DNA from: an uncultured Ktedonobacterales bacterium
Lineage (GTDB): Bacteria > Chloroflexota > DTOL01 > DAOUCN01
Assembly (NCBI GenBank): GCA_964402955.1
Contig: CAYOEZ010000003.1
Span: 588-64,587, forward strand
DNA length: 64,000 nt
Direction of reading: 5' to 3'
Below are positions 8,369 through 29,516 of the stretch, in pieces; position 1 is the first letter of the stretch, and each line of letters opens with the position of its first letter. The notes under the pieces are model-generated. The model saw nothing but the letters and a program-made list of their open reading frames with translations. It was not told where the DNA came from and ran no database searches. The position numbers and the translations under genes are program-made.

Positions 8369-8641
8369 GCTCACGCAGCCGGTGTGCTCGTTTGTCCCGA
8401 TCTTCCCGCTGTGGAGAGTGTGAGAAGTCTGGCGCACTCTCCACATATCGTGGAATGGCTGGAGTGCAACGCCGCACTCATCACTCTTCTGTCCCAGTCA
8501 GGAATGGAGATCATCTCTGCGCGGTCTTAATTCCTGCCTGGTCGCGAGAAGGAGGTGAGTAGACATAGCCGTTATGTTCCCGCCCATTTCGTGCCTATGG
8601 TGATAAGAGACACACAGCATACATCCACTTAGGAGGGCAAG

Positions 8642-9832
8642 ATGAAGACCCGTCGTCTGTCGTACGTGCTCGTGACCATCCTGCTTGTGGCGGCCACACT
8701 CATCAGCGCCTGTGGCGCGACGCCAACAGCAACAGCAACGCCAAAGCCGGCGCCCACCAACACCCCTGTCCCACCAACCAAGGCGCCAGCGCCAGCAGCA
8801 ACCAACACGAGTGCTCCGGCTCCTGCTGCCACAGCCGTGCCTGCAACAGCCACAAAGGCGCCCTCTGCAGCCGTCTCACCGACGGCCGGCCCAACAAACA
8901 CTCCCATTCCCATGAAGTGCGACAAGCTGCCCACCGCCTACACTGTGCCAGCGGGGCAACTGGGCGCACCCGACAAGCCGATCGTCATCACATTCGTGCC
9001 ATCGGGCGACACAGCAAAGATCACCCGTGGCGGCAACGACATGGCTGAGTGTCTGACCAAGATGACCGGCCTGAGCTACAAGATCGAAGTCGGCACCAAC
9101 TACGCAGCGTCGATCGAAGCCATGGGCGCCAACAAGGCCCAGGTCAGCTTCCTCGCCACGTTCGCTATCCTGCTTGCCCAGGCCAAGTATCAGGTCGAGC
9201 CTGCTCTCATTGCTCTGCGCAAGTACAACACCAATGCCGTTGATCCCGATAAGGCTATGGCCGGACAACTGAGCCCCTACTATAAGGGCCAGTTCATCGC
9301 CAAGAAGGATTCCGGCATCAAGAGCTTCGCCGACCTGAAGGGCAAGACCTTCTGCTTTGTCACGCCCAACTCGGCGTCTGGCGACATCATCCCGCGCATC
9401 ATCTTCAAGGCTAACGGCATTGACCCCGACAAAGATCTCAAAGCAACGCAGTATGCCGGCGGCCACGACAAAGTTGCCATCGCTGTCTATCGCGGCGATT
9501 GCGATGCTGGCGTCACGTTCGTAGACGCTCTGACCGACGCCCAGTACAATCTCAAGGCCACCTTCCCCGACATCGATGCAAAGGTCGGCGCCTTCGCTGT
9601 GAGCGATCGCATCCCGAACGACGGCCTGCAATATACCAAGGGACTCGATCAGAAGATCAAGGACATCACGACCCAGGGTCTGTTGGCAATGATGGCCGAT
9701 CCCGGTGGCAATGCCACCGTCAGGTCCGTCTACTCGTATGATGCTTTCTCAAAACTCGACAAGCCCTACTATGATGACTTCGCCGCCGTGCTGAAGAAGG
9801 CCGGTGTCGATCCCGCTACTCTGGTCAAGTAA
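8642..9832 (+). CDS. phnD: Phosphonate/phosphite ABC transporter substrate-binding lipoprotein (PhnD family)
   Basis: Lipobox LISAC followed by a Thr/Pro-rich linker. PhnD-like body. AGGAGGG SD. Followed by phnC and phnE. Confidence 0.8.
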   Translation: MKTRRLSYVLVTILLVAATLISACGATPTATATPKPAPTNTPVPPTKAPAPAATNTSAPAPAATAVPATATKAPSAAVSPTAGPTNTPIPMKCDKLPTAYTVPAGQLGAPDKPIVITFVPSGDTAKITRGGNDMAECLTKMTGLSYKIEVGTNYAASIEAMGANKAQVSFLATFAILLAQAKYQVEPALIALRKYNTNAVDPDKAMAGQLSPYYKGQFIAKKDSGIKSFADLKGKTFCFVTPNSASGDIIPRIIFKANGIDPDKDLKATQYAGGHDKVAIAVYRGDCDAGVTFVDALTDAQYNLKATFPDIDAKVGAFAVSDRIPNDGLQYTKGLDQKIKDITTQGLLAMMADPGGNATVRSVYSYDAFSKLDKPYYDDFAAVLKKAGVDPATLVK

Positions 9833-9837
9833 GCTAC

Positions 9838-9878
9838 ATCCATGGCCTGGCAGGCCTTTGGCCTGCCAGGCCATGGAT
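9838..9878 (+). terminator. Intercistronic stem-loop after phnD (perfect 19-bp stem, 3-nt loop)
   Basis: ATCCATGGCCTGGCAGGCC-TTT-GGCCTGCCAGGCCATGGAT, 6 nt after the phnD stop codon. Confidence 0.5.
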
Positions 9879-10072
9879 TTGCCTCATCTCGCCGCCCGGG
9901 GTAGACGTTTTTCTGCCCAACGCGGCTTTAAGTGTTCACAACTCGCCAGGCGATCTGCAAGAACCACGCGACGCCCGCAAGGACCTGATCACCCATCTAT
10001 GCACCCGGATGCCACTGTGTGCCATCGTACCATCAACTGCCTCGGCGAGCGGCGCCAACAAATGGAGTTCCC

Positions 10073-10831
10073 ATGCTAAAAGTTGAACACCTGACCAAGG
10101 TCTACCCCAATGGAACACAGGCGCTCAAAGACGTCAGTTTCGAAGTTGCCGATGGCGAATTTCTGGCCATCATTGGTCTCAGTGGGTCCGGAAAGTCCAC
10201 CCTGTTGCGCTGCATCAACCGTCTGATTGACCCCACCGCAGGCAGAGTCATCTGGGACGGAGTTGATATTACGGCTGCGCAGGGCGCCGAACTGCGCAAC
10301 ATCCGCCGCCAGATCGGCATGATCTTCCAGCAATTCAACCTGGTCAAACGATCCCCCGTGATAACCAATGTCCTGGCTGGCCGGCTGGGCTATGTCAACC
10401 CGCTGCAAAGTCTCCTCGGCTACTTTTCCGCCGACGACCAGGCGCGGGCGCTGGCAAGCCTGGAGCAGGTGGGCTTGAGCGACAAGGCGCATGTGCGCGC
10501 CGATTCACTATCTGGCGGCCAGCAACAGCGCGTCGGCGTTGCCCGGGCGCTCATGCAGGAGCCCAAACTTATCCTTGCCGATGAACCGGTTGCGTCTCTG
10601 GACCCCGTCCTGGCGCACTCCATCCTCAAATACCTCGAGCAACTGAACAGAGAACACAAGGTCACGGTTTTGTGTAGCCTGCATTTTCTCGATCTTGTGC
10701 ATCGCTATGCGACGCGCGCCATTGCGCTCAAGGATGGCCAGGTCGTCTTCGAGGGCTTGCCGCAGCAGATTGATGATGCCCAGTTCAAAGCAATCTACGG
10801 TAAGGAAGCCGAACGCATCTCAATCGTGTAA
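10073..10831 (+). CDS. phnC: Phosphonate ABC transporter ATP-binding protein
   Basis: MLKVEHLTKVY.., Walker A GLSGSGKST, signature LSGGQQQR, Walker B LILADEP. ATG at 10073 with a GGAG SD. This is an internal start of the track ORF. Confidence 0.9.
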   Translation: MLKVEHLTKVYPNGTQALKDVSFEVADGEFLAIIGLSGSGKSTLLRCINRLIDPTAGRVIWDGVDITAAQGAELRNIRRQIGMIFQQFNLVKRSPVITNVLAGRLGYVNPLQSLLGYFSADDQARALASLEQVGLSDKAHVRADSLSGGQQQRVGVARALMQEPKLILADEPVASLDPVLAHSILKYLEQLNREHKVTVLCSLHFLDLVHRYATRAIALKDGQVVFEGLPQQIDDAQFKAIYGKEAERISIV

Positions 10832-10853
10832 GCACAGGGAGTGCTGACTGCAC

Positions 10854-12827
10854 ATGCAACCTACGACTCTCCACCCGCCTGCCCGAACCGCGCTGCTATC
10901 CTTAGTCATTCCGGGAGCAGGCCAGGTCATGCTCAATCGCCGCTGGCGTGGAGTGCTTATCCTGCTGGCCGTGGCGCTCTTCGCCTTCCTCATCAACTGG
11001 GCGCTCGTCAACTTCAAGATTGGCGTTGTGAGCGTTGCTGGGCAGGCAACAAGCTGGCTGTGGCCCGTCCTGGCCGCCTTCTGGCTGTGGAATGTTTTGG
11101 ATGCCTACCGTCTGGCAGGGGGGCGGAGGACCAGCACCGTCCTTGGCGTCCTGCTTGTTGCCATCATACTGTATGTCATCGCCTGGGATGTCACCGACAT
11201 CAAACTTGAGCGCCTGATAACCAGGTTTGGCGATGCGCAGAAGATCATGGCCGACCTGGTTCACCCCAATCTGTTCACACGCGATGGCGGCGGCGCCCTT
11301 CACCCCAGCCAGAACTTCACCGACATCTTTGGCAAGATCGTAAACAAGCCAGCATCTGGCCTGTTCGTCAACCTGGGCCTGGTGGCAAAAGACGCCCCGA
11401 CGCCCACATTTGTGGCCGGCAAACTGATTGAGACGATTGCCATTGGCCTGTTAGCGACGATCTTCTCGACGATTCTTGCCATCCCCCTCAGCTTCTTCGC
11501 CGCACATAACATCATGTCGCACGTGCGCGGCGGCACAGCAATCTACTACGCCATGCGCACGTTCCTCAACATTGTGCGCGCCGTTGATACCATGATCTGG
11601 GGAATTATCGTCATCGTGTGGGTTGGCCTGGGATCATTTGCCGGCGTCATCGCTCTGACTATCCACTCGGTGGCTGCGCTGGGCAAGCTTTACTCTGAAG
11701 AGATCGAGCATATTGATCCGGGGCCTGTGGAGGCTCTGACGGCAACGGGCGCTAACCTGTTCCAGGTCATGCGTTATGCAGTGGTGCCCCAGGTCATACC
11801 ACCATTTCTTGGATATACACTATTACGCTGGGACATCAACATGCGCTCGGCAACTGTTGTTGGTTTTGTTGCCGGCGGCGGCATTGGCTACTTCGTCGTT
11901 GAAACCTTACGCATGGCAGCCTATAGAGACTATGCCGCAGCATTGTGGGCTGTGGCCGTCATTATTATTCTCGTCGACTACATCAGTTCCTCCTGGCGGG
12001 CGCGCATCCTAGCAGACGCCCCTCCGCCAGCAACCGACAAACCTCGCACATTCCTGGCATCACTACGCACGACCATCTATGCCATACTCGGCCTGACCAT
12101 CTTTATCTACTGCTGGCAACTCGCCAAGATAGACCTGCGCCAGCTTTTTGAGCCAGCGCCAACATTCATTCGCCTGGTACGCGATTTTCTTTCATTTGAC
12201 TTCAGCTCGACGGTTATGAACGTCGTGGTCAAGCAACTGCTTATCACCATCTTCCAGGCCTTGCTGGCAACGACGCTGGGAGCGATTATTGCCCTTCCTT
12301 TCAGTTTTCTCGCGGCAAAGAACCTGACGGGACGCAGTGCAATGCTGGCGTGGCTCTACTTCCTGACACGCGCGACCTTCAATATCCTGCGCTCCATCGA
12401 GGCGCTGCTGTACGTGGCCATCTTCGTCTTCTGGGTTGGCATCGGGCCGTTTGCCGGCACACTGGCATTGGCGATCACCAGCTTTGCCCTGATCGGAAAA
12501 CTGTTCTCAGAAGCAATCGAGAACATCGATAGTGGCCCGTTGGAAGCGATTACGGCGACTGGCGCAAACCGCCTGCAAGTGATTATGTATGGCATTCTTC
12601 CCCAGATTATCCCTCCGTTCCTGTCTTACACCATCTACCAATGGGACATCAACATCCGCATGGCCACCATCATCGGGTTTGCGGGCGGCGGCGGCATTGG
12701 CCTCCAACTGTGGACCTATTTTGGGACGTTGCAGTATCATAAGGCAGGCACAGTTGTCTTGTCCATTGTGATTGTCGTCGCTCTGATGGATTTTGCCAGC
12801 GCCAAACTGCGAGAGATGATGGTCTAA
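10854..12827 (+). CDS. phnE: Phosphonate ABC transporter permease, internally duplicated (two PhnE modules in one polypeptide)
   Basis: Two paralogous halves each carry the EEIEHIDPGPVEALTATGAN / EAIENIDSGPLEAITATGAN EAA-type loops and the ..WDIN(M/I)R.. motif. Confidence 0.85.
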   Translation: MQPTTLHPPARTALLSLVIPGAGQVMLNRRWRGVLILLAVALFAFLINWALVNFKIGVVSVAGQATSWLWPVLAAFWLWNVLDAYRLAGGRRTSTVLGVLLVAIILYVIAWDVTDIKLERLITRFGDAQKIMADLVHPNLFTRDGGGALHPSQNFTDIFGKIVNKPASGLFVNLGLVAKDAPTPTFVAGKLIETIAIGLLATIFSTILAIPLSFFAAHNIMSHVRGGTAIYYAMRTFLNIVRAVDTMIWGIIVIVWVGLGSFAGVIALTIHSVAALGKLYSEEIEHIDPGPVEALTATGANLFQVMRYAVVPQVIPPFLGYTLLRWDINMRSATVVGFVAGGGIGYFVVETLRMAAYRDYAAALWAVAVIIILVDYISSSWRARILADAPPPATDKPRTFLASLRTTIYAILGLTIFIYCWQLAKIDLRQLFEPAPTFIRLVRDFLSFDFSSTVMNVVVKQLLITIFQALLATTLGAIIALPFSFLAAKNLTGRSAMLAWLYFLTRATFNILRSIEALLYVAIFVFWVGIGPFAGTLALAITSFALIGKLFSEAIENIDSGPLEAITATGANRLQVIMYGILPQIIPPFLSYTIYQWDINIRMATIIGFAGGGGIGLQLWTYFGTLQYHKAGTVVLSIVIVVALMDFASAKLREMMV

Positions 12828-17636: not shown

Positions 17637-20600
17637 TCAGGGCCGAAGTATGACCGGGAGATACAACCGCGCCCCGATCACACCCTTCACGCGGACCACG
17701 GTGCTGCCGTCTACGTCCGGGCTGGTGAGGGTGATGGTGGTGGTATAGGTTCCCCGGGTCAGGCCGGCGCCATCCAGGGACAGGGTAACCTGGTCCGGGG
17801 TAGTACCCGCCGTGGCGCTCAGGTACAGCCAGGGTGCGCCGGCCAGGGCCTGCCAGGTGAGGGTTTGCCCAGGATCCTGGCTGTCAATGGAGAGACGGGC
17901 CGTTGCCATACCAAGGGCGGGCTCCAGCAGGATAGTTTCCGGCCCGGCCACCAGGCCAGGCAGCGGTGGGGGCAACTGACTCGGATCACTCACGACAACC
18001 ACCTGCACCGTGTCTGTCGCCACGCCGCCCACCCCGTCATCCGCCCGCACGGTAATCGTATGAAAGCCCTGGCTCAGGCTGGCCACTCTCAGGCCGGCCC
18101 CCTGCCCGAGTGCGCCATCCAGGTTCGATGACCACAGTACCTGGCTGTCGGCCATGCTGCCCGTGTCCACGTCGTAGGCCACCGCCTCCAGGTCGAGCGT
18201 CTGCCCGGCGGCCACGGCGGTCATGCCTGTGGGCCGGGTGATGTGCACGGTGGGGATGCGGTTGGGCACGGTGAAGGTCCCGTCCGAGGCGTCGCTGGCG
18301 GTGTGGATACCGTCACTTGCCCAGACCCGGAAGCGCGCCTGGTTCCCGGCCGGGACGTTGGCCGCGTCTACTACAGCGCTCCGCCCGGTCTGATCCTGGG
18401 CCACCGTGAACCAGTTGGCGCCGTTGTCGGGGGTATACTGCACGATGAAGGACAGCGGATCGCCGTCCGGATCGCTGGCGGTCCAGGTGACGGTGATGGT
18501 GCTCCCTGAGAGGACCTCGCCGCCGTTGGGGGCGGTGAGAGTGACGACGGGCGCCCCGGCGCCGGCGCTGACGCTGCCAAGAACTGCGCCGCCTGCGCCC
18601 TCGATCTCGACCCGGTTCGTGCCTGCCACATAGGGCACCAACTCATTGATCAGCAGGCCTGTCACAGAGCGCCCCGAGCTCGCGGCCGGCGCGGTTGGGC
18701 CGCCGTCTACTTGTTGCGGTGTGAAGGGGTAGCGGGCCAGCACTGCCCCCGCGCCATCGCGCAGAGTGATGGCATAGCTTCCCGGCACGCGCTCTTTCAC
18801 GTCCCCGGCGTTGGGGATGATGAAGAGCGGCTGCAAGCTAACCTGGCCCGTGGTGGCATCCAGGGTGCCCACCACCAGAAGGCGGTCGGTCTGGTCCAGG
18901 GTGCGGCGGTCGGCTGTAACGGCCGGGGCCGGCTGGAAGGTGTTCATCAGGCCTTCATAGGTAAACCGTCCCGTCCACTCGTTGTCACAGTATGTCATCA
19001 CGTCGTGCCAGGCCGGCCCGTAGATGGCCCGGGTGCCGGCGTCAAAGCCATAAACCGCGCCGTTGCCCGTGAGGTCAGCGCTGATACGCCCGTCGGGATA
19101 GGGGTAGGACGGGCCGAACTCGGCGCCGCAGAAGTTAGCGTGGCCGCGGCCGTAGGTGTGGCCCAACTCATGGCCGCCGTACCAATCGCCATAGGTGCCG
19201 TCAAAGTCCCAGCCCCAGTCGCGGGTGCCGGTGGGCCCGGAGGCGACCACGCCAACGGCGCAGCCGCGCATGAAGCCGGCGTTGTCGGCTACCATGGCAT
19301 AATAGCGGGACGCCAGAGGGATTGAGGGGTTGACAACCATATCCCAGAGCTTCTGCCCCGCCAGGAACGCATCGACCGTGGCGCAATTGGGATTGATCAA
19401 TTCGCCCCCGAGGGCCACGGCGGTGCCCCAGTCGCTGGTTCGCTCCCAGTACGTGTACCCGGAAATTGGATAGGCGCGCAAGAGCCAGTCCATCATGGCA
19501 TCGACGTCGCTGGCGGGCGGCCAGAAGTGGGTGCTGCCCACGTTGTAGCCCAGCCGGTAAACCATGACTGCGATGGGAGACCCGGGCTGGAACGTCACGG
19601 TCGTCGACTTGGTGTTGTTGGCGTAGGTCACCTCGACCGGGTCATGGACGCGCGCCGACGTCACCGGGTTGACCTCGGCGTTGATGGTGGTTGTGCCAAA
19701 GATGAAGTCGACGGGAAGCTCGAAAAGGAAGGCCTGGTCAAGCACGGCCCGGTCAGGCGACGGGCGCACCGTAATCTGCCCTCCGCTATTGATGGGCGCA
19801 AGCCGCATCGAGGCTCCCAGGCTGTTCGTGACGAACAGATCTGCGTAGGTCAGGTAATTGCCAGCGTTTGAGTGGACGTGGAAGCGCACGAAGGTGCGCT
19901 TGCCCGCCACCAGGGCGATGCTGTTGTTCAGGTCCTGGACGCTCTGCGTCACTTCAAGGGCATCGGCCACCAGGTCGGCAGTAACCACCGGCGTCACCGT
20001 GGCAGTGGATGTGGCCGTAGGGACGGAGGTCGGCGTCGCCGTGCAGGGTAGCGCGGAGACATACGTCAAGAGCAGGCGGGGTGGTGCTGCGCCGTGGCGG
20101 CTGGCGAAGGCGCGATAGCGCCCGTTGCCCGTCAGCATCAGCCCGTAGTTGGGCACGCTGCCCGCGTACCAGTCGCGGATAAGCTGGCTGACATCCCACA
20201 CCGTGTCAGTGCCCTGGCCGCGCGCAATTCCGCTGGCGACGGCGTCTTCGGCAGCCGGGCTGTTGTTCCAGGTGACGCCGCTTTCGGACCATGTCTGGCC
20301 AATGCGCAGCACGGTAACGAGCGCGTTGACGGGGCTGCCGCCATCGTCGCTGATGCGGGCCAAGAGCTGTGCCCGCAGGAGAATCGTCCCCGCCGGAATG
20401 GGCGGCAAGGTAAAGCGCAGCAGGCTGGACGTGACGCCGAACTGGGAGGCCCAGCCCTGCAGCCCTACAAGCAGCCCGGGTGCGCTGCCGTAGTTGGTAT
20501 TCGGGTTCAGACTGTCCTTATAGGTATCGGCCACGGGTATGATCGTCAGGACAGTGGCGAAGCTGCAGCCGACGGGAGGCGTATCGGTAGCCGTGGCGGT

Positions 20601-20780
20601 GCGCGTGCGCGTGCGTGTCGGCGTATAGGTCGCGGTGAAGGTACGGGTGGCTGTCCGGGTCGGCGTGGAGGTACTGGTGCCCGTAGTGGTGCTGGTGGCG
20701 GTGTTGGTGCTGGTCGCGGTGGGGAGAGTTGTCGGCGTGTTCGGGGCCAGGTCATCCCAGAACTTGTTGTCGGTCAGCAC
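17637..20780 (-). CDS. Secreted metzincin-type zinc metalloprotease body (Thr-rich linker, DNRLRE-like domain, HELGHTYGRGH protease, Ig-like repeats). No signal peptide of its own.
   Basis: HExxHxxGxxH motif. DNRLRE-style segment (ADTYKDSLNPNTNYG..LLRF..). Directly continues the frame of 20781-21260 across a TAG. Confidence 0.8.
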   Translation of the reverse strand: MLTDNKFWDDLAPNTPTTLPTATSTNTATSTTTGTSTSTPTRTATRTFTATYTPTRTRTRTATATDTPPVGCSFATVLTIIPVADTYKDSLNPNTNYGSAPGLLVGLQGWASQFGVTSSLLRFTLPPIPAGTILLRAQLLARISDDGGSPVNALVTVLRIGQTWSESGVTWNNSPAAEDAVASGIARGQGTDTVWDVSQLIRDWYAGSVPNYGLMLTGNGRYRAFASRHGAAPPRLLLTYVSALPCTATPTSVPTATSTATVTPVVTADLVADALEVTQSVQDLNNSIALVAGKRTFVRFHVHSNAGNYLTYADLFVTNSLGASMRLAPINSGGQITVRPSPDRAVLDQAFLFELPVDFIFGTTTINAEVNPVTSARVHDPVEVTYANNTKSTTVTFQPGSPIAVMVYRLGYNVGSTHFWPPASDVDAMMDWLLRAYPISGYTYWERTSDWGTAVALGGELINPNCATVDAFLAGQKLWDMVVNPSIPLASRYYAMVADNAGFMRGCAVGVVASGPTGTRDWGWDFDGTYGDWYGGHELGHTYGRGHANFCGAEFGPSYPYPDGRISADLTGNGAVYGFDAGTRAIYGPAWHDVMTYCDNEWTGRFTYEGLMNTFQPAPAVTADRRTLDQTDRLLVVGTLDATTGQVSLQPLFIIPNAGDVKERVPGSYAITLRDGAGAVLARYPFTPQQVDGGPTAPAASSGRSVTGLLINELVPYVAGTNRVEIEGAGGAVLGSVSAGAGAPVVTLTAPNGGEVLSGSTITVTWTASDPDGDPLSFIVQYTPDNGANWFTVAQDQTGRSAVVDAANVPAGNQARFRVWASDGIHTASDASDGTFTVPNRIPTVHITRPTGMTAVAAGQTLDLEAVAYDVDTGSMADSQVLWSSNLDGALGQGAGLRVASLSQGFHTITVRADDGVGGVATDTVQVVVVSDPSQLPPPLPGLVAGPETILLEPALGMATARLSIDSQDPGQTLTWQALAGAPWLYLSATAGTTPDQVTLSLDGAGLTRGTYTTTITLTSPDVDGSTVVRVKGVIGARLYLPVILRP

Positions 20781-21260
20781 CTAGCCTGCCAGGGGATTGG
20801 TATATTGGATCCAGTTCAGATTCACGACTGCACCGTCCACCGAGCTTGCAAACTCGGAGACATAGCCGGCCGGGTCGACCTCAAAGATGTTGTAGTACTC
20901 CCATATCCCCGGCGGCACGAGTCCATACCAGCCGATGCCGTTGGTGGACGTGCGGTCACAGAGTGTTCCCAAGGCATGGGGGTCGTTAGAACAGTAGAGC
21001 TGGACCTCCACCTCGGCCAGAGGCTGCCTCTCGTCCCCTTTCTGGCCGCGGAAGACCTGACCTTCCAACATCGGCGCGGAGAGGGCGGAGTCTGGCACGA
21101 CAGCCGTGGCCATCAGGCTGGCAGCGGTGAGGTGGCTCCCGACCTCAGCGGGCAGGGGGGCCAGGGAGGCTGGGGTATTGTTCAGCAGGCCGAGCAAGAC
21201 GAGCGCCACCAGGGTAAACAGGCCGGCGGTCAGCCGGAATGGGCCTCGTCGGTTAGTCAT
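20781..21260 (-). CDS. N-terminal fragment of the same protease (signal anchor plus SdrD-B/carboxypeptidase-regulatory-like fold), ending at an in-frame TAG
   Basis: AAGGAG SD before ATG 21260. TM/signal LTAGLFTLVALVLLGLL. Stop TAG at 20781-20783 falls inside a ..NPLAG*VLTDNKFWD strand motif. Confidence 0.7.
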   Translation of the reverse strand: MTNRRGPFRLTAGLFTLVALVLLGLLNNTPASLAPLPAEVGSHLTAASLMATAVVPDSALSAPMLEGQVFRGQKGDERQPLAEVEVQLYCSNDPHALGTLCDRTSTNGIGWYGLVPPGIWEYYNIFEVDPAGYVSEFASSVDGAVVNLNWIQYTNPLAG

Positions 21261-21550: not shown

Positions 21551-21820
21551 CTACAACTCGTCCAGTGCGACTTTGCCGGCGATGAGCGCCAGCTTGGCTG
21601 GACGGTGCTTCTTTTTGATCGCGGCTTCGCGGCGGCGGGCGTCGCCGGCGCTGGGCAGTTCTTCGGAGTAGACGAGGCGCAAGGGGAGACGCGCGCGGGT
21701 GTAGCGTCCGCCGCGGCCGGCCTGATGCGCTGCCAGGCGCGCCGCCAGGTCAGTCGTCCAGCCGCAATAAAGCATGCCGCCGCGGCATTCGAGGAGATAA
21801 ACGAAGAAAGACAAAGACAT
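21551..21820 (-). CDS. GIY-YIG nuclease superfamily protein (small, UPF0213/YhbQ-like)
   Basis: FFVYLLEC..G.LYCGWTTDLAARLAAH..G....YTR.. (GIY...YIG...R...E pattern). Starts 5 nt after the CHAT gene stop. Confidence 0.85.
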   Translation of the reverse strand: MSLSFFVYLLECRGGMLYCGWTTDLAARLAAHQAGRGGRYTRARLPLRLVYSEELPSAGDARRREAAIKKKHRPAKLALIAGKVALDEL

Positions 21821-21825
21821 TGAGG

Positions 21826-24800
21826 CTACCTATCCAGCGCCCTCACGTACAGCCCATTGCTTGTCGCCACAAGCAGGTCGTGCGGCTCGGCCGGGTGAAC
21901 GGCGATCGCTTGCACGAAGGGCGCGATGTCGCCGCTCCACTGCTGCCAGCTATCGCCGCCGTCGCGGCTGACATAGACGCCCTGGCTGCTGGTCCCGGCA
22001 AAAACTGTGGCTGGCGACGCGTCGGTTAACGCACGTGGCGTTACCGCCAGCGTCACCACCGCGATCTTGTCCAGTCCGACACGCGTCCAGGTCGACCCGC
22101 CGTTACTCCCTCGCCACACGCCGCCCCGACTGTCACCGGCAAAGATGTAGCCGCTACTGGGATCGATCGCCAGCGTATACACCGGGGCATCGTGCACCTG
22201 CGTCCACGTTCTTCCAGCGTCCTTGCTGCGATAGATACCGCTGCCGATACCGCTGCCCGATCCGGCATAGACGAGCGACGAATCGCGCGGGTCAACCGCC
22301 AGCGCCATCACCTGCGCCTGGCTGACAAGCGTGTCGGCTTTGATCCAGCGTTCTCCCTGCGTGTCGCTGCGATAGACCCAACCATTGCCGGCGCTGACAT
22401 AGAGCATCGCACTATTGGAGGGGGCAACAGCCAACACGACCGGCGCATCCTGGGACAGGCCCGTATTGATCGACTGCCATTTCATCCCCAGGTCTGTGCT
22501 CTTGAACACGCCATCGGTCGTGAGCACGTAAATCGTTGACGGTGAGGTGGGGTCTGCGACCAGGGATGAGATATCCTCTGTGCTCAAGCCCGTCTGGCGC
22601 GGCGTCCAGGTGCGCCCGCCGTCCGCGCTATAGAAGATGCCCTTGAGATAGGCGGCGACTAACATGCCGTCGCGCACCGCGGGGTCGCCAACGACACCCG
22701 ATACATTCAGCACATTGAGATTACCCTGCACCGCCGACCAGTTGCGCCCGCCATCCGTGCTGCGGAACAGACCGTCGCCCCAGGTCCCGGCCAGCAGGCG
22801 GAACGGCGCGGCAACGAGCACCTGCACCGAGCGCCCGGCCAGCCCGGCGCTGGCCGCGTCCCAGCGATCGCCGCTGTTGGCGCTGCGGAAGACGCGTCCC
22901 CCATCGGTGCCCACATAGAGCACCTGGGGATCAAGCGGATCAACGGCCATCGCCCGCACGCGCACATTGTCCATGCCCTGGTTGATAAGCGTCCACGTAT
23001 CCCCGCCGTCGCGCGTGCGATAGACGCCTTCGCCCGCCACCCCGGCGTAGACGATCTTCTCGTCATACGGGTTGCCAACCAGGTCGCGAATGTCCGGCTT
23101 CGGCTCCACCTTGCGCAGAGGCAATTCTTTCCATGTTGCGCCGTTGTCGAGCGTCAGGTAGACGCCGTTCTTGGCGCCGACATAGAGCCGTCCCGGACGG
23201 CCTGGCTTGGTCGGGACAGGATAGAAGACGTTGATATACTCGGCCGACGGCTGGCTCGCTGCGGCTTTCCAGGTGCGCGCCCCGTCGTCGCTCATATACA
23301 CACGTCCTGTTCCCGTGCCCGCCCACAAACGGGTGTGGTCCGCTTCCACGACAGCCGACAGCGCATAAATGTACCTGGAGTCGATACCGGTCGTTGCCGT
23401 GACCCAACTCTCTCCGCTGTTGTCGCTGCGGAATAGCCCGGCGCCATTCGTTCCGGCGTAGAGGATCGTCGGCGAGATAGGATCCAGCACGACGCTCCAG
23501 ATATGCTGGTTGGCCAGACCATTGTTGATGCCCTGCCAGGTCTGGCCGCCATCCGTTGACCGCTGCACGCCGCCGCCCCACGTACCCAGATAGATGCTCT
23601 GGCCCAGGCCATCGACGGCAATGCTGCGCACGATCGCCCCGCCCAGATTATCTGCCCGCACCCATCCCGCCGGCCGCGTGGGCGTCGCCGTCGGGGTCAC
23701 CACAGGAGATGGCTCTGGCGTCACATACACAATGATGATCGTCGTTGGCGAGACCAACTCGGTTTTCGCAGGAGCAGGCGTTGGCGGCAGCGGCGTTGCC
23801 GTGGGCGTGGCAACGCCAAAAGCGCGCCAGCCGCTATACAGCGCTACCACCGCGAGCAGGAAGATCACCCCCAGCAGTCCGGCCAGAACCGCCGGCGGCA
23901 AGGTTGGGCGTTGCAACTCAGCCGTCACCTTCGCTTCTATCTGGGGCAATAGCTCAGCCAGGTCGGGATAATCCGGCGCCTGGACCTGGATGCGTTCAAG
24001 ATTGTCCAGCGCCATACGCCAATGGCGCTTCCCGGCCTGGCGCTTTGCTTCGGCCATCAGCCTGGCCAACTCGATCTGGCGACGCGCCTCAAGCAGAGAT
24101 GGCTGAGCATCGGCGTGGCCGGACTCGGCAGCAACAACAGGAGCCAACGCATCGACTGCCTTCTGCCACTCGCCCTGCTTGTAGAAAGCCATGCCGTCGC
24201 TGTACAAACCGTCGAGACGCGCTTTTTCCGCCTGCGCCGCACCGATCCTGAGCGCCAGGGCATCGGCTTCTGCGGACGGGCTGCGCTGTTTGACCAGGTC
24301 AACAATGGCCAGCGCAGCGTCCCACTCTCCGGCGCTGAAATCCTTCTCAGCGCGAGCAATCATCTCGCTCGAGGTTTCAGCAATGCGCAGGGCAGGATCG
24401 CCATAGAAGATGAACGATGCCCAGGTGGCGTCGGTGGGCCGGTGCTCACGCACAATCGAGCGCGCCGCCTGTATGGCGTCGCCCGTGCTGGCGCCGTTGA
24501 GCAACGCGCCGTAGAAATTGATGGCAAAGTCGCGCGAACCAGCGTCGAAAATCGGCCACTGTGCACCGAGGAAACCGGCAGCGCCGCCGGAAACGAAGGC
24601 AGACGCCAATCCTTCGGCCTGCGGGCCCGTATAGCCTACTTCCCAACCCACTTCTTGCGCCTCACCCTGGCGCGCCGATGAGCAGGCATTGAGGAAAACG
24701 ATTGGCCGGCCGCGTAGAATGCCCTCGATCTGGCTGGCTGGAAGATTGCGGCCGCCGGCCAGGTGCAGACCGCTGCGATCGGGGTGTTCACCCTCGAAGA

Positions 24801-25458
24801 AGGCATGTCCGGTATAGTGGATGACCTCATAGCGACCCGACACCAGTGCCTGCTGTACGCCGATATAGGTGGCGCGCGAGCCGCGCAAGAGATCATAGGC
24901 AATGCCGCGTGCATCCAGAAGCGCCATCAACTCGTCGGCTTCCGTGTCGGCTTCGGGGAGATCGCCCAGGGGGTTGCTGATGATGAGGAACGTCGGTTCG
25001 GCTGTCACTGAGCCTTCCGGCCCGGCCACCCAGCGCGTGACCATCAAGCGGCGCGTGATGGGCGCGCGCAGACCCAGGAACGACTGCCCATCGTGCAGGA
25101 GTTCCCAGGGAATCTGGCTATCATTGGTTGAGATAATGAGCGAGACATCTAGATCGCGCAGAGCATTTTGGATGAGCGGGGGCAGGAAGAGACCATACAT
25201 GAGCTGGCCAAATTCCTCCAGGCTCCCCACCTCACAGACCTGCGCCATTGCCGACACGTCGCCACGGTACGGCGACTCGCTTCCCGCCTGGCGATTGATC
25301 AGCGCAGTGACGGCGTCTACAATGCGTACGATATCCTGGCGGTGCTCATTCCCAACCCATACCGTACCAGCCAACGCCAGCGGCCCTTTGCGTGGCGTCT
25401 CCAACGTGACCGTATAGCGGTCGTCGGCTTGTAGGATGGAGAGAACTGCAGAGTCCAT
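21826..25458 (-). CDS. Transmembrane CHAT-domain (caspase-like) protease with TPR-like helical region, one TM helix, Pro/Thr linker and ~13 Asp-box (BNR/sortilin-like) propeller repeats
   Basis: CHAT dyad motifs VIHYTGHAFF and VFLNACSS. TM LPPAVLAGLLGVIFLLAVVALYSGW (aa ~520-544). Repeated S/T-x-D-x-G-x-T/S-W boxes (RSTDGGQTW, RSDNSGESW, MSDDGARTW and others). Confidence 0.9.
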   Translation of the reverse strand: MDSAVLSILQADDRYTVTLETPRKGPLALAGTVWVGNEHRQDIVRIVDAVTALINRQAGSESPYRGDVSAMAQVCEVGSLEEFGQLMYGLFLPPLIQNALRDLDVSLIISTNDSQIPWELLHDGQSFLGLRAPITRRLMVTRWVAGPEGSVTAEPTFLIISNPLGDLPEADTEADELMALLDARGIAYDLLRGSRATYIGVQQALVSGRYEVIHYTGHAFFEGEHPDRSGLHLAGGRNLPASQIEGILRGRPIVFLNACSSARQGEAQEVGWEVGYTGPQAEGLASAFVSGGAAGFLGAQWPIFDAGSRDFAINFYGALLNGASTGDAIQAARSIVREHRPTDATWASFIFYGDPALRIAETSSEMIARAEKDFSAGEWDAALAIVDLVKQRSPSAEADALALRIGAAQAEKARLDGLYSDGMAFYKQGEWQKAVDALAPVVAAESGHADAQPSLLEARRQIELARLMAEAKRQAGKRHWRMALDNLERIQVQAPDYPDLAELLPQIEAKVTAELQRPTLPPAVLAGLLGVIFLLAVVALYSGWRAFGVATPTATPLPPTPAPAKTELVSPTTIIIVYVTPEPSPVVTPTATPTRPAGWVRADNLGGAIVRSIAVDGLGQSIYLGTWGGGVQRSTDGGQTWQGINNGLANQHIWSVVLDPISPTILYAGTNGAGLFRSDNSGESWVTATTGIDSRYIYALSAVVEADHTRLWAGTGTGRVYMSDDGARTWKAAASQPSAEYINVFYPVPTKPGRPGRLYVGAKNGVYLTLDNGATWKELPLRKVEPKPDIRDLVGNPYDEKIVYAGVAGEGVYRTRDGGDTWTLINQGMDNVRVRAMAVDPLDPQVLYVGTDGGRVFRSANSGDRWDAASAGLAGRSVQVLVAAPFRLLAGTWGDGLFRSTDGGRNWSAVQGNLNVLNVSGVVGDPAVRDGMLVAAYLKGIFYSADGGRTWTPRQTGLSTEDISSLVADPTSPSTIYVLTTDGVFKSTDLGMKWQSINTGLSQDAPVVLAVAPSNSAMLYVSAGNGWVYRSDTQGERWIKADTLVSQAQVMALAVDPRDSSLVYAGSGSGIGSGIYRSKDAGRTWTQVHDAPVYTLAIDPSSGYIFAGDSRGGVWRGSNGGSTWTRVGLDKIAVVTLAVTPRALTDASPATVFAGTSSQGVYVSRDGGDSWQQWSGDIAPFVQAIAVHPAEPHDLLVATSNGLYVRALDR

Positions 25459-25533
25459 AGCTCTCTTTATTGCTTACGCTAGATCGCCCCCTCGCAGGGC
25501 GGTTCTTGCTGCATATTGTCAGTATGATAAACG

Positions 25534-26382
25534 TCACAGGGTCAACGGAAGTTCCCATATTTTGCCCGATCTTTCGATGCGTACCAGATAGTGGCCGGGA
25601 GTAATGTCAGGAAAACGCGCTTCGCTCTCTCCCGGACGCACGGTCTTGATCTCCTGCGCCTGTCCCCTTTCATTGCACAGAGCAATGCGAACGCCGGTCA
25701 ACGTCTGCCCCGATGACAGCATCTTCATGGCAACCGCCAGCCAGCGCGCCTGCAGCGCCTCAGTCACATTCATAGAAATGCAGATATCTTGCGCCTGATC
25801 GTCCACGGAGAGCGACACCAGGTTGTCCCTGGCCTTGCTGCGCGGGCCACGCCGGGCAGCCGGCGCGGCGGCGTAGGAAACAGCCAGCCCGGGCGGCGGC
25901 GAGAAGAGCGCCTCGCCGAGCAATGCCAGAGCGGCGGGAATATCGAAGGCAAGACGGCGCACGCCTGCTTGCGCTTGCGTCCACAACTCGACGACGCGTT
26001 GCTGGGGCAGGAATGAAAGATCGAACGTAGGATAGCGCGGCGGCTCGGCCAGAGCGCCCTGCCCGACCAGCGCCATAACGCGCTCCCAGGAGGCCGCTTG
26101 CGCTGCACACGCCGCGCAGTGAGCCAGATGTGCGCCCACGGTTGCGATACCCTCACCCCCGCCAGAGCGGTAGGCGTCCAGTCGCGAGCGCGCCTCTGCG
26201 CAGGTTATCTCGTCTGCATCAGACGATTCTATGGCGCACACGAAACGCGCCATAGAACTGTGGCAGGCAGCGCAGCCTGTCACATGTGCGCGGGCTTCTG
26301 CCAGGTCACTCTGGGCAAGCCCCTGGTCAAACGCGCCTCGGGCAAGAATTTCTCGTGCAGATTGGCATTCAATCAACGCCAT
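25534..26382 (-). CDS. Putative anti-sigma factor with two zf-HC2-like H-x3-C-x2-C motifs and no obvious TM
   Basis: HVTGCAAC and HLAHCAAC motifs in the N-terminal 100 aa. Beta-rich C-terminus (..ITPGHYLVRIERSGKIWELPL). Located directly downstream of the ECF sigma gene. Confidence 0.65.
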   Translation of the reverse strand: MALIECQSAREILARGAFDQGLAQSDLAEARAHVTGCAACHSSMARFVCAIESSDADEITCAEARSRLDAYRSGGGEGIATVGAHLAHCAACAAQAASWERVMALVGQGALAEPPRYPTFDLSFLPQQRVVELWTQAQAGVRRLAFDIPAALALLGEALFSPPPGLAVSYAAAPAARRGPRSKARDNLVSLSVDDQAQDICISMNVTEALQARWLAVAMKMLSSGQTLTGVRIALCNERGQAQEIKTVRPGESEARFPDITPGHYLVRIERSGKIWELPLTL

Positions 26383-26489
26383 GCTCCTTAGACATGGAAC
26401 TCGTACGGTATGGGTAGACGGGACTATTGCGGCGTTCCGCAGCGAATCCTGAATCCTACTTCCGAACTATATGACGTAAAAGGCAGGGG

Positions 26490-27176
26490 CTATTCTTTCA
26501 TATACTCATCGAGTAGGCGCAGAAACGTGGCATCGGCGCGCAGATGGTCGAGATCGCGTGAGCGAATGGTGTGGATGTTGCTGCGTGTGGTGTGCAGAGC
26601 GGTCGCCAGCATGCCATCGTCCCAGTCATTCAGAAACCCGCGAATCAACACGATTTTCGATTTGTCACTCAGCACGGAATGGCCGGCGATGCCATCGGTG
26701 AGAAGCTCAACAAGCTCGCGACGCGAAAAATGCGCGTCGGGCAAGTTTTCCGGAATATCAGCGATGGTGTCCTGCAACTGGCCGCCCGACTCGCGTATCT
26801 CATCGAGGCTGTTCTGCCTGCCCAGGGGAATGCGACGGCGGCGCGCAATCTGGGCTGCGGCAGCGGCGCCGGCCTGCTCCCCGCCGAGCCCGACTCCGAG
26901 CCGCCGGCACGAGTCGTACACCTTGTTGATGACGACGCGCGCCGACCAGCTCAGGAAACGATCGGGGTCTTCCACCCCATCCAGGCTCTGCCAGACGGTG
27001 ATCAGCGCTTCTTGTGAGCAGTCTTCCGCCAGGTCATGGAGCTGGGCGCGGTCACGCACCAGGTTGTAGGCAACCTGGTACAGGTAGCGGCCCAGGGTCT
27101 GAAACGCCTCCACCTGCGCCTGCCCGCCGGACCGGCAGGCTTCGTAGAGCTTCCGTCCATCGATTGGCACTGCCAT
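26490..27176 (-). CDS. ECF-type RNA polymerase sigma factor (sigma-70 regions 2 and 4)
   Basis: Region 2 is ..DCSQEALITVWQ..PDRFLSWSARVVINK. Region 4 HTH is ..MLATALHTTRSNIHTIRSR. ATG at 27176 has a GGAGAG SD and lies downstream of the predicted -10. The track TTG at 27224 coincides with the -35. Confidence 0.85.
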   Translation of the reverse strand: MAVPIDGRKLYEACRSGGQAQVEAFQTLGRYLYQVAYNLVRDRAQLHDLAEDCSQEALITVWQSLDGVEDPDRFLSWSARVVINKVYDSCRRLGVGLGGEQAGAAAAAQIARRRRIPLGRQNSLDEIRESGGQLQDTIADIPENLPDAHFSRRELVELLTDGIAGHSVLSDKSKIVLIRGFLNDWDDGMLATALHTTRSNIHTIRSRDLDHLRADATFLRLLDEYMKE

Positions 27177-27194
27177 CCGTCTCTCCGCGCGGGC

Positions 27195-27224
27195 AGTATA
27201 GCACATTTGCACAGTGAGCGGCAA
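27195..27224 (-). promoter_or_regulatory. Promoter of the sigma operon (TTGCCG-18-TATACT with TGC extended -10)
   Basis: -10 at 27195-27200 and -35 at 27219-27224 on the minus strand. Confidence 0.45.
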
Positions 27225-27304: not shown

Positions 27305-28411
27305 GTGTCCGTGGCGACCAATGATTCAGCAGCGGTCGAGAGCCTCAGCATTCGTTTAACTGAGGCTGTGCGCGATGTTTTTCGTGTTCAGGATGTCACC
27401 GTAGGCTTCGGGCCATACCACAGCGTCCGCTTGCGCGGCCGGCTGCTGGTTGACGCCAGCCTGGCCTATGATCGCATCAATCCCCGCTTTCAGACGATGG
27501 GGCAGACTCTCCTCTTGCGCAGCGAGGGCGACCTGCACACGATTGAGGCGCTGCCTGTCACCTTTCCGATGGTGAAACCGAATGTGCGGGTTGCATTCAT
27601 CCTCTTCATCGCAACGGTGCTCTCGACCATCTATGCCGGCTCGCAGTGGGCAAGTGAGCCAACGCTACAATCCCGCTTGTTCGCTGGCCTGACTTTCAGC
27701 GGTACCCTGATGCTCATCCTTGGCGCGCACGAGCTAGGCCACTACATTATGTCTCGCCGCGTGGGCACGCCGGCCACCCTGCCCTATTTTATCCCGCTGC
27801 CGATCTTTCTTTTCGGCACCATGGGCGCCTTCATCCAGATGAAGGCGCCGCCGCGCAATCGCCGCACGTTGCTGGCTGTCGCTGCAGCCGGACCTTTGGC
27901 TGGACTGGTCTTCTGCATCCCGCTTCTCTTCATCGGCCTGATGACGTCTTCCGTGAGCACTCAGCCGCCGGGACAATCATACTTGCAGGAAGGCAATTCG
28001 CTCCTCTACCTCCTGATGAAGTTCATCGTCTTTGGCAAATGGCTGCCAGCGAACGGACTGGACGTTTTCATCAACCCGGTTGCGATGGCTGGATGGGCCG
28101 GGTTGTTTGTCACCGGCATGAACCTGATTCCCGCCGGTCAGCTTGACGGTGGGCACATCATGTATGCGCTGATCGGCGCAAAAGCACGCTACGTCAGCTA
28201 TGCTGTGCTGGGCGTCATGCTGGTGTTGGCCCTGGTCGTTGACACGAACTGGCTGTTGTGGGTGGTCCTCGTCTATTTCCTTGCCCGCGGCGAGACCCCC
28301 CTCCTGGACACAATCACGGCGCTGACCCCCAGGCAACGCATCCTGGCCGCCGTGATGGTGATCGTCTTCATTCTTGTGTTCATCCCGCGTCCCTTCATTA
28401 TCGTCAACTAA
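27305..28411 (+). CDS. Site-2 protease family (peptidase M50) integral membrane metalloprotease
   Basis: [11 protein letters not shown] (HExxH) and [13 protein letters not shown] (NxxPxxxLDG) motifs. Multiple TM helices. Confidence 0.88.
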
Positions 28412-28433
28412 CCGCCAGGAACAGGAGAAAAGC

Positions 28434-29516
28434 ATGAAAGGCTTCAACGGTTTACACATGGACATGGGTAACCTGTCGCTCCTCTCCAACGCCGCCACGC
28501 GCTCGATCAGCCCGGAGAACCGCAGCGGAGAGAAGGGCAAAGGCGGCATGGCTACTGAAGGCACCGGCGCAGACTGCGCCCGCGACCTGGGCCAGGGCTG
28601 GAAGATCTCACCCTCGCTGCGCATGCCGCCGCACAGTACGCTGACTCTCGCCGACATGCAGGGATCGGGCGCCATCCAGCAGATTTGGCTGACCGTCACG
28701 GGGCGCTGGCGCTACAGCATCCTGCGCATGTACTGGGATGGCGAGCAAACGCCGTCGGTTGAGGTTCCTGTTGGCGACTTCTTCTGCATGGGTTGGGGCC
28801 GTTATGCGCAGATCAACTCATTGCCTGTGACCGTCAACCCCGGCAGCGCCTTCAACTGCTACTGGGAGATGCCTTTCCGCAGTGGCGCACGCATCACCAT
28901 CGAGAATCTGGACGACGAGCAGCAGACGATCTACTACCAGATTAACTACACCCTGACCGATGTGCCCGACGACGCGGCCATGTTCCACGCTCAGTTCCGC
29001 CGCTCAAACCCATTGCCCTACAAAGAGGTGCATACGCTTCTTGACGGGGTACGCGGGCAGGGGCAGTATGTAGGGACGTACATGGCCTGGGGCGTGAACA
29101 ACACCGGCTGGTGGGGCGAGGGTGAGATCAAGTTCTACATGGATAACGACGGGGATTTCCCGACGATCTGCGGCACGGGCAGCGAGGACTACTTTGGCGG
29201 CTCCTACGACTTCGAGTACCCCCGTGGCGTGAGCTACTGCCCGTTCAGCGGTCCCTATACCGGCCTGCCCCAGGTGATCAACCCGAATACTCTGTATGAC
29301 TCGCAGATGCGCTTCGGCCTTTATCGTTGGCACATTACTGACCCGGTGCGCTTCCAGAAAGATCTGCGGGTAACGATGCAGGCGCTAGGGTGGCGCTCTG
29401 GCCACCGCTATCTGCCGCTGCAAGACGACATCGCCTCGACGGTCTTCTGGTATCAGAGCGAGCCGCACGCTCCCTTCCCCACGCTGCCGGAGCGCGATGG
29501 GCTGGAAGTGATCTAA
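28434..29516 (+). CDS. DUF2961 / GH172-family glycoside hydrolase
   Basis: MKGFNGL..SISPEN..GEKG.GG..WLTV....LRMYWDGE..PSVE.PVGDFF..GW.. and C-terminal ..GTGSEDYFGG. ATG at 28434 with an AGGAG SD. Confidence 0.85.
   Translation: MKGFNGLHMDMGNLSLLSNAATRSISPENRSGEKGKGGMATEGTGADCARDLGQGWKISPSLRMPPHSTLTLADMQGSGAIQQIWLTVTGRWRYSILRMYWDGEQTPSVEVPVGDFFCMGWGRYAQINSLPVTVNPGSAFNCYWEMPFRSGARITIENLDDEQQTIYYQINYTLTDVPDDAAMFHAQFRRSNPLPYKEVHTLLDGVRGQGQYVGTYMAWGVNNTGWWGEGEIKFYMDNDGDFPTICGTGSEDYFGGSYDFEYPRGVSYCPFSGPYTGLPQVINPNTLYDSQMRFGLYRWHITDPVRFQKDLRVTMQALGWRSGHRYLPLQDDIASTVFWYQSEPHAPFPTLPERDGLEVI

Follow-up and report, generated by a model that had tools for sequence, protein, structure and literature searches.

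The 64,000-nt stretch of contig CAYOEZ010000003.1 (assembly GCA_964402955.1, positions 588 to 64,587 of the forward strand) from an uncultured Ktedonobacterales bacterium, referred to here as the window, carries three consecutive minus-strand genes, which encode a sigma factor of the extracytoplasmic function (ECF) type, a soluble anti-sigma factor, and a membrane-spanning receptor with a small N-terminal domain (N-domain) and a caspase-fold CHAT protease domain. The sigma factor, the anti-sigma factor and the N-domain+CHAT protein are a conserved three-gene unit, which recurs in different genomic contexts with different sensors attached to CHAT. We estimate at roughly one in two the probability that activation of the sensor switches on CHAT, which would then cleave the soluble anti-sigma factor and thereby free the sigma factor.

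An initial annotation, made from the letters and a list of open reading frames (ORFs), had described four co-directional genes as one functional module. Its coordinates were confirmed, with the sigma gene (26490-27224, an ORF with a TTG start), the anti-sigma gene (25534-26382, 282 aa), the receptor gene (21826-25458, 1210 aa) and a GIY-YIG nuclease gene (21551-21820, 89 aa) all on the minus strand and separated by gaps of 107, 75 and 5 nt. Its domain calls (Sigma70_r2, CHAT, Sortilin-Vps10/BNR and GIY-YIG) were all matched by profiles. The linkage of sigma factor, anti-sigma factor and CHAT receptor stood, and the GIY-YIG gene was removed from the module for the reasons given below.

The cytoplasmic part of the receptor served as query for relatives, and contig look-ups together with a scan of metagenomes yielded the close loci L001-L005 and L008-L014. 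In all 12 of them, tblastn placed an anti-sigma homologue immediately 5′ of a same-subfamily CHAT gene, and a sigma homologue preceded the anti-sigma gene wherever the contig extended far enough. A search with a profile of the 282-aa family reached a subfamily of 257-259 aa with 26-28% identity, which kept the order sigma, anti-sigma, CHAT in three unrelated contexts (L015-L018, L023, and L024/L025). A 419-aa anti-sigma variant was followed by a CHAT N-terminus in L019, while in L007, which encodes a CHAT-CsgG protein, a weakly related zf-HC2 (PF13490)/beta-sandwich protein was encoded two genes upstream. Altogether, a member of the anti-sigma family stood directly 5′ of a same-subfamily CHAT gene in 17 distinct loci besides the window. 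The flanking genes varied (DHODH/ADH/M55; DUF362/glycerate kinase; NADH dehydrogenase/POR; Tubulin_2; helicase-KH), and the three proteins diverged in parallel, with 20-24% identity for the sigma factor, about 27% for the anti-sigma factor and 38% for CHAT (residues 1-362). The synteny of CHAT with sigma and anti-sigma genes, on which the initial annotation had staked its reading, held in every informative related locus.

The C-terminal sensors carried by the N-domain+CHAT portion comprised a transmembrane (TM) helix with BNR propellers in the window, a TM helix with a PD40 propeller (L003), a TM helix with a small ectodomain (L005), and a STAND NTPase with TPR repeats; further CHAT relatives were fused to trypsin (P0009) or CsgG (P0010). 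In the STAND-type proteins, which have no TM helix, an AAA_16/NACHT-type STAND NTPase and TPR repeats follow CHAT, and the three genes of these loci are spaced 29-31 nt apart and lack the ECF-type promoter motif described below. The N-domain was kept with CHAT in all sigma-linked relatives, including the STAND-fused ones at the 38% identity given above, and a CHAT relative without the N-domain (P0055, L022) was also without a sigma or anti-sigma neighbour. Since the sensors are swapped on a constant N-domain+CHAT portion, the CHAT protein appears to be the sensing component. The interchangeability of the sensors further suggests that sigma factor, anti-sigma factor, N-domain and CHAT together form an output device for different sensors. 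The genome-contig scan gave a single locus, in a metagenome-assembled genome of the Chloroflexota, and the taxonomy therefore rests on that record. The plasmid collection contained distant CHAT proteins only and no anti-sigma homologue.

Receptor, anti-sigma factor and sigma factor

The receptor begins with an alpha+beta domain (residues 1-56, 25291-25458), modelled by AlphaFold2 (AF2) with strands at residues 3-11, 14-20 and 28-34 and a helix at 37-55. The CHAT domain of the separase/caspase fold (24394-25221) was matched by PF12770 at 4.3e-33 over residues 82-354. Next come a helical, TPR-like juxtamembrane domain (residues 363-516, 23911-24372; AF2 pLDDT >90), a single TM helix (residues 520-543, 23830-23901; Kyte-Doolittle 2.74) and a Pro/Thr-rich linker (23659-23829). 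The extracytoplasmic propeller region (21829-23658) is the presumed sensor and was matched by the Pfam Sortilin-Vps10/BNR profiles at 4.3e-43 and by NCBIfam NF045728 (F510_1955-like) at 2.1e-69. With one TM helix and 10 strict Asp-boxes, the protein is the membrane-spanning propeller receptor that the initial annotation had recognized, and an equivalent one-TM architecture was found in L003, L004, L005, L007, L008 and L009.

The AF2 model of receptor residues 1-520 (pLDDT 88, pTM 0.82) contained a CHAT fold at residues 80-355. The best PDB matches of this fold in Foldseek were separase (E ~1e-9), Csx29 (5e-9; 8eex_B, 7zoq and 7xsq), SAVED-CHAT and DdvA (8rot). The catalytic motifs are intact and were correctly numbered at the outset, with HYTGH at residues 214-218 (His218 at 24805-24807) and NAC at residues 257-259 (Cys259 at 24682-24684). 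H214, H218 and C259 were invariant in two alignments of 12 and 11 homologues, and among 31 homologues of a broader sample each was either invariant or kept in 90% or more of the sequences. The invariance of the His/Cys dyad in the linked homologues argues that catalysis matters.

In the anti-sigma factor (25534-26382), two zinc-binding anti-sigma (ZAS) units of the CHCC type are followed by a conserved linker, for which disorder is predicted, and by a beta-sandwich at the C-terminus. The double zinc finger reads C6...H33xxxC37xxC40 and C61...H85xxxC89xxC92. ZAS motif 1 (H33-x3-C37-x2-C40 at 26263-26286, with C6 at 26365-26367) is a clade-specific N-terminal add-on, present in the window clade and missing from the 257-259-aa subfamily. 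ZAS motif 2 (H85-x3-C89-x2-C92 at 26107-26130, with C61 at 26200-26202) is the universal zinc site of the family, with C61, H85, C89 and C92 invariant among 30 aligned sequences, and is probably the sigma-binding unit. Two HxxxCxxC motifs were present in 37 of the 123 family representatives. In the AF2 model, which had an overall pLDDT of 69, two three-helix units hold the two zinc motifs.

The window protein had no Pfam match, and its match to RsrA was below threshold. ZAS motif 2 aligned with the HLxxCxxC motif of RsiW (5wuq_C) and of the DdvA N-terminal part (8rlz_A), weakly in both cases (E 0.23-0.65), and some homologues matched PF13490 (zf-HC2) or were annotated in their source as "anti-sigma factor RsiW". 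The anti-sigma gene adjoins a sigma gene in every locus whose contig extends that far; in the PD40-propeller variant (L003), whose anti-sigma N-terminus aligns poorly, a Uma2-family (PD-(D/E)XK-like) gene lies between the two (6453-7178 of that locus). The anti-sigma factor is soluble, as had been proposed. No TM helix was found in any member examined; the Kyte-Doolittle peak of the window protein was 1.41, in a stretch containing Asp and Glu, and the homologues reached at most 1.58. A candidate TM helix at residues 144-162 was ruled out, being the segment of that peak with its charged residues and not hydrophobic in the homologues. Consequently, regulated intramembrane proteolysis (RIP) of the anti-sigma factor cannot apply.

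The hallmark of the family is the linker from L111 to R143 (25954-26052), which contains LAEPPRYPTFDLSFL...W134...RR. L111, P114, F120, S123, F124, L125, W134 and R143 are invariant, and these most conserved residues of the family lie in a region of low model confidence (residues 115-183, with pLDDT <50 at 115-128 and 136-183), as would be expected for a substrate or docking segment. The linker is thus a candidate docking or cleavage region, judging from conservation and the model. An FDLSFL-like motif was found by a strict regular expression in 62 of the 123 representatives. A separase-like ExxR site at E113-P-P-R116 was also considered and was dropped, since EPPR-like sequences occurred in 6 of the 123 representatives against the widespread FDLSFL motif.

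The C-terminal beta-sandwich (25537-25821; residues 188-281, pLDDT about 85-90) is of an MG/Ig/CarboxypepD_reg-like type and ends in an invariant WEL. Its Foldseek matches were weak and generic (MG/FN3/CnaB-like), and homologues gave sub-threshold matches to bMG3 and CarboxypepD_reg. The family comprised 59 representatives at E<=1e-30, 387 at <=1e-10 and 2,207 at <=1e-3, where the weaker bands also take in unrelated large repetitive Ig-like proteins. In L019 (3352-4611; P0037 and P0038), the linker (W...VRRF...IP) and beta-sandwich of the anti-sigma factor of about 420 aa are duplicated in tandem.

The sigma factor (26490-27176, 228 aa) has an Arg-rich insertion between the sigma2 and sigma4 regions. 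It matched PF04542 (Sigma70_r2) at 1.1e-10 and 41.6 bits (cutoff 24), and TIGR02937 over residues 40-229 at 41.0 bits, just below the cutoff of 42.9. The window protein had no Pfam match for region 4, and its C-terminus aligned with that of homologues positive for Sigma70_r4_2 (L003 at 1e-11, L019 at 5e-9 and L015 at 2e-6). The ATG at 27176 is its more likely start, since it encodes the Met from which all homologues align, and since the longer ORF, with its TTG start, would overlap with the promoter.

Some features of the homologous loci stood out. In L001, the closest long contig, the sigma and CHAT genes (6092-6773 and 8001-11620) are split by frameshifts, and insertion sequence/transposase genes lie a few kilobases downstream; the frameshifts stem from faulty assembly or from decay of this copy. 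In the STAND-type loci L015-L018, a protein of more than 1230 aa with a Peptidase_C25-like match is encoded from 12641 onwards, 3′ of the TPR gene, and may be another protease of clan CD belonging to that operon.

Promoters and intergenic regions

A sigma-70-type promoter with an extended -10 element (TTGCCG-18-TG-TATACT, 9/12) was recovered 5′ of the sigma gene at 27195-27224 on the minus strand, where the initial annotation had placed the single promoter of the cluster. The promoter scan alone is weak evidence, with 4 sites in 8 kb against 1.8 expected. The extended -10 sequence TGTGCTATACT was invariant 5′ of the sigma gene in four homologous loci; in the alignment of this region, CTTGCC was kept in L001 and L008, and the -10 element in L004 and L002. 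A sigma-70-like promoter likewise preceded the sigma gene of the distant L015 module. A housekeeping-type promoter kept 5′ of the sigma gene fits a sentinel system that is made in advance. As had been noted from the letters, no terminator-like site was found by the window scan in the 107-nt or the 75-nt gap, and neither gap was more structured than its shuffles (z -0.7 and +0.3).

The claim of one promoter for the whole cluster was qualified by a candidate ECF-type promoter of the CHAT gene (GGAAC-N17-CGTT, 25530-25555, minus strand), which was found by motif search and overlaps the anti-sigma stop codon. In the window clade, an ECF-type motif, GGGAACTT-N15-CGTY, straddles this stop codon, with a layout of TGGGAACTT, about 15 nt, and then CGT(C/T); ahead of the CHAT gene, TGGGAACT...CGT was invariant in six loci. 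The CGT(C/T) element was retained past TGA, TAA or TAG, and in L004 within coding sequence, while the sequence downstream of it diverged. Two rare codons are preserved in the motif at the 3′ end of the anti-sigma gene, namely GAA, which makes up 33% of Glu codons, and CTT, which makes up 10% of Leu codons. Transcription of the CHAT gene may therefore start from a separate, sigma-dependent promoter, which would provide positive feedback on the receptor. The invariant Trp-Glu-Leu partly dictates the letters of this motif, the same WEL-derived motif also occurs within the CHAT ORF, and the motif was missing in the L009 clade and in L015.

In the window, GGAAC-N16-18-CGTY occurred at 9 sites against 2.4 expected from shuffles, an excess that is possibly a codon or composition effect, and a mismatch-tolerant search showed no enrichment (42 sites against 48 expected). 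A regulon call from these sites was dropped, as the window held no further copies in a promoter context.

Several homologous loci contain hairpins in and around the corresponding gaps. Long palindromic hairpins of tandem heptamers, such as AATCAGG repeats facing CCTGATT repeats, were found in L009 (5900-6000), L010 and L012 (870-960); they have RNAfold z-scores of -10 to -12.6 and no T-tail, occupy the gap between the anti-sigma and CHAT genes, and extend into the C-terminal coding region of the anti-sigma gene (GNQ repeats). Heptamer hairpins were also present 5′ of the sigma gene in L009, L011 and L014, and a second type (GACGAAC...), again with no T-tail, in L011 and L014. Stable hairpins rich in GC (z -2.9 to -4.2) separate the anti-sigma gene from the CHAT gene in L001 (7815-8000), L008 (5865-6000) and L013 (993-1125), and these elements of close relatives are possibly attenuators or RNA-stability elements. 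Unlike them, the 75-nt gap of the window contains a 6-bp stem only.

Proposed mechanism, alternatives and neighbouring genes

In the proposed mechanism, the sigma factor, anti-sigma factor and receptor would be transcribed from the housekeeping-type promoter, and the soluble ZAS anti-sigma factor would hold the ECF-type sigma factor. The single-pass receptor would keep its N-domain, CHAT domain and TPR-like helices inside the cell and expose about 610 residues of BNR propellers outside. Ligand binding or clustering of the propellers would be relayed through the TM and juxtamembrane helices to activate CHAT, which would cut the anti-sigma factor, probably within the flexible, conserved stretch that links its ZAS helices to its beta-sandwich. 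The freed sigma factor would bind RNA polymerase and could also act back positively on the receptor, as suggested by the conserved GGAAC...CGTC motif before the CHAT gene. The linkage of the three genes, the domain architecture, the conserved dyad, the missing TM helix of the anti-sigma factor and the swapping of sensors are established, whereas cleavage of the anti-sigma factor by CHAT, the cleavage region, the ligand, the regulon and any role in defence are inferred.

Several points weigh against this mechanism. A distant relative of the anti-sigma factor (P0054, in L020/L021) retains both a sigma neighbour and the EPPRYPxxDLSFL motif, and no CHAT gene was found within about 3.5 kb downstream of it, so that the linker may serve sigma binding and not CHAT recognition. 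The cytoplasmic placement of CHAT depends on a presumed N-in topology, adopted because there is no signal peptide, because the STAND paralogues are cytosolic, and because of the Pro/Thr-rich linker and BNR domains. The ECF-like promoter before the CHAT gene would be just as compatible with CHAT as no more than a regulon member, and the copies of GGAAC-N16-18-CGTY outside the sigma locus are all intragenic (e.g. 5591, 16658, 56791 and 59104). Finally, the ZAS cysteines themselves could be a (redox) sensor.

The last points lead to an explanation that we consider unlikely, in which the CHAT receptor does not regulate the sigma factor but lies downstream of it, as its target or effector. The ZAS anti-sigma factor would itself sense a cytoplasmic thiol or redox cue, as in RsrA-SigR, and let go of the sigma factor, which would raise expression of the receptor, and CHAT would act on other substrates (envelope remodelling, cell-death effectors). 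The GGGAACTT-N15-CGTC motif directly 5′ of the CHAT gene in six loci would fit this explanation, as would the sub-threshold RsrA match given by the HxxxCxxC motifs and, in several homologous loci, the long hairpins that part the anti-sigma gene from the CHAT gene, a hint at separate transcription units. However, only the CHAT protein has recognizable sensor domains, and the domains swapped between loci include STAND NTPase-TPR, a classic intracellular receptor, in loci whose tightly packed genes lack the ECF motif; to our knowledge, most ZAS anti-sigma factors are not redox sensors. This explanation and cleavage by CHAT are not mutually exclusive, as feedback is possible. More doubtful still is a non-proteolytic partner switch, in which the receptor, upon a signal, would sequester the anti-sigma factor at the membrane via the linker and beta-sandwich and so free the sigma factor, with CHAT used for autoprocessing only or not at all. 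The beta-sandwich is well folded and has no obvious role in sigma binding, autopeptidase activation was proposed for EACC2-caspase proteins by Kaur et al. (PMC8195603), and the CHAT domain of DdvA was proposed to act on DdvA itself (PMC11506125). Yet the His/Cys dyad is strictly invariant in all linked homologues, and in the characterized analogues, Csx29/Csx30 and CalpL/CalpT, the inhibitor of the sigma factor is cleaved.

Two further explanations involve the adjacent genes, and we regard both as very improbable. The initial annotation had included the GIY-YIG gene in a four-gene module, in which CHAT would also license the nuclease for defence. The gene is co-directional with the CHAT gene across a 5-nt gap, it lies 3′ of CHAT in four of seven close loci (the window, L001, L002 and L004) although the genes beyond it in these relatives differ from those of the window, and protease-activated nucleases are known in immunity (PMC12799240). 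However, it was not found 3′ of CHAT in L003, L009 or any STAND-type locus, nor in L008, which holds the closest CHAT relative (89% identity to the window CHAT), and its membership was rejected on synteny. Its product (PF01541 at 8.5e-15) is a bare 89-aa domain with no cleavable extra domain or pro-peptide and no PADLOC match, and presumably belongs to the ubiquitous small YhbQ-like type (E. coli YhbQ). On the other side of the locus, a Peptidase_M50 gene of the site-2-protease family (27305-28411, plus strand), which the initial annotation had not mentioned, is divergent and starts 80 nt upstream of the sigma promoter, an arrangement repeated in L001. Its product might carry out RIP of the receptor, releasing a soluble CHAT fragment that would then act on the anti-sigma factor, and the receptor resembles RIP substrates in being single-pass with a bulky ectodomain. 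The M50 gene was nevertheless rejected as a component, being absent beside the module in L002, L003, L004, L008, L009 and all STAND loci, and the STAND versions involve no membrane step. Judged by synteny, the GIY-YIG and M50 genes are neighbours and not components, and release of the sigma factor through cleavage of the anti-sigma factor by CHAT is the reading that we retain.

The M50 gene is followed by a DUF2961/GH172 gene (28374-29516, plus strand), and this pair flanked the module in the window and L001 only. No CRISPR-like array was found in the window, and no cas domains among the neighbouring genes. The sole PADLOC match was a weak, generic match of CHAT to BovA (Borvo) at 5e-7, with none for the sigma or anti-sigma factors. 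On the minus strand, 290 nt 3′ of the GIY-YIG gene, lie genes for a 159-aa protein whose N-terminus carries a TM or signal helix (20781-21260) and a 1047-aa secreted-type protein with a Thr/Pro-rich N-terminus and CBM96 and Big_7/fn3 matches (17637-20780); the stop codon of the former abuts the latter gene, and the pair was not found beside the module in other loci. Elsewhere in the window, tandem repeats at 45232-45544 (period 30-35 nt, 2.6-3.2 copies, 79% matches) lie mostly upstream of a 932-aa ORF (45521-48319, minus strand) and overlap the first ~24 nt of its 5′ end.

Relation to known systems and significance

The initial annotation knew of no ECF system regulated by a CHAT protein. This did not hold, since Csx29-Csx30-CASP-sigma, DdvA-DdvS and the computational work of Kaur et al. 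(2021) precede it. In Craspase, the ECF-like CASP-sigma is inhibited by Csx30, which is cut by the TPR-CHAT protease Csx29 (PMC10028731). The likeness lies in a sensor-activated cytoplasmic CHAT protease that cuts a soluble inhibitor of an ECF-like sigma factor, and Csx29 was among the best structural matches of the window CHAT model. In Craspase, however, the sensor is the RNA-guided Cas7-11 complex, whereas the window locus has no cas genes or CRISPR array and a TM helix joins its sensor to CHAT. Csx30 was never recovered in searches with the anti-sigma family, and has not been described as a ZAS protein.

DdvA of Myxococcus xanthus is a transmembrane ZAS anti-sigma factor with a periplasmic TPR-CHAT part (PMC11506125). 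DdvA-DdvS thus joins an ECF sigma factor, a ZAS domain of the CHCC type and CHAT in one membrane-spanning signalling unit, and DdvA matched the CHAT profile and model (8rot) as well as the second ZAS motif (8rlz). In DdvA, ZAS and CHAT are one polypeptide, CHAT is periplasmic, its active site is incomplete, and release is proposed to need RseP. In the window, by contrast, CHAT is predicted to be cytoplasmic, has a complete dyad, lies N-terminal to the TM helix and is separate from the soluble anti-sigma factor, while the outer domain is a BNR propeller. In CalpL-CalpT-CalpS (type III-B), CalpL cleaves CalpT to release CalpS, and SAVED-CHAT acts likewise through PCaspase on PCc-sigma. Here the shared feature is a signal-activated cytoplasmic protease that cuts a soluble anti-sigma-like protein or the sigma factor. 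The differences are that activation occurs by cyclic oligoadenylates through SAVED, that CalpL is Lon-like and not a CHAT protease, and that there is no membrane receptor.

The closest description is a computational study by Kaur, Iyer, Burroughs and Aravind (2021; eLife e70394, PMC8195603), which described proteins in which a constant alpha+beta domain, EACC2, and a caspase domain are joined to a hypervariable C-terminus, consisting of TM and extracellular domains or of intracellular STAND NTPase, trypsin or other domains. Most of the EACC2-caspase neighbourhoods hold an ECF sigma factor along with a DUF1822 TPR protein, and a path from stimulus through caspase to sigma factor was proposed (PMC8195603). 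An N-terminal alpha+beta domain, a caspase-fold protease, a variable C-terminus and an ECF sigma neighbour are likewise present here, and the architectures found in this work fit (TM-BNR, TM-PD40, STAND-TPR, trypsin in P0009 and CsgG in P0010), with the N-domain compared by description only. The third partner differs, being DUF1822 in that study, where an anti-sigma factor is unmentioned (PMC8195603), and here an invariant soluble anti-sigma factor with ZAS, FDLSFL linker and beta-sandwich. None of the window proteins, and none of the locus genes that were scanned or precomputed, gave a DUF1822 match. The main text of the ECF classification paper makes no mention of CHAT.

RIP of a membrane-spanning anti-sigma factor is the canonical route by which ECF sigma factors are released in response to extracytoplasmic cues. 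RIP-controlled systems (RseA/DegS/RseP; RsiW) share with the proposed mechanism the release of an ECF sigma factor by proteolysis of a ZAS/ASD anti-sigma factor upon an extracytoplasmic cue. The anti-sigma factors of those systems are membrane-spanning, whereas the one described here has no TM segment, so that the signal must cross the membrane through the receptor protein. The locus would work like the Craspase and CalpL systems, and belongs neither to the Craspases nor to the DdvA-type or RIP-controlled systems. What is new is a family of dedicated, soluble anti-sigma factors (ZAS, FDLSFL linker and beta-sandwich) together with the transmembrane propeller form of the receptor. This family has no Pfam model of its own, and defining it would improve annotation.

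The anti-sigma factor and CHAT are a putative protease-substrate pair that lends itself to a clean test. Should CHAT cleave the anti-sigma factor, the locus would be a compact outside-in proteolytic pathway and a distinct form of transmembrane signalling, and the anti-sigma factor would be the missing partner, that is the substrate, for the EACC2-caspase and ECF sigma neighbourhoods predicted in 2021. More tentatively, at somewhat less than even odds, we suggest a one-polypeptide "caspase receptor", whose propellers switch on CHAT so that the soluble anti-sigma factor is destroyed and the ECF sigma factor released, and whose cassette is also mounted on NLR-like STAND sensors, as a widespread protease-to-transcription arm of innate-immunity-like sensing independent of CRISPR and cyclic nucleotides. 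Coupling to STAND proteins would link NLR-like bacterial sensors to a transcriptional and not a suicidal output, for which Craspase and CalpL provide the precedent.

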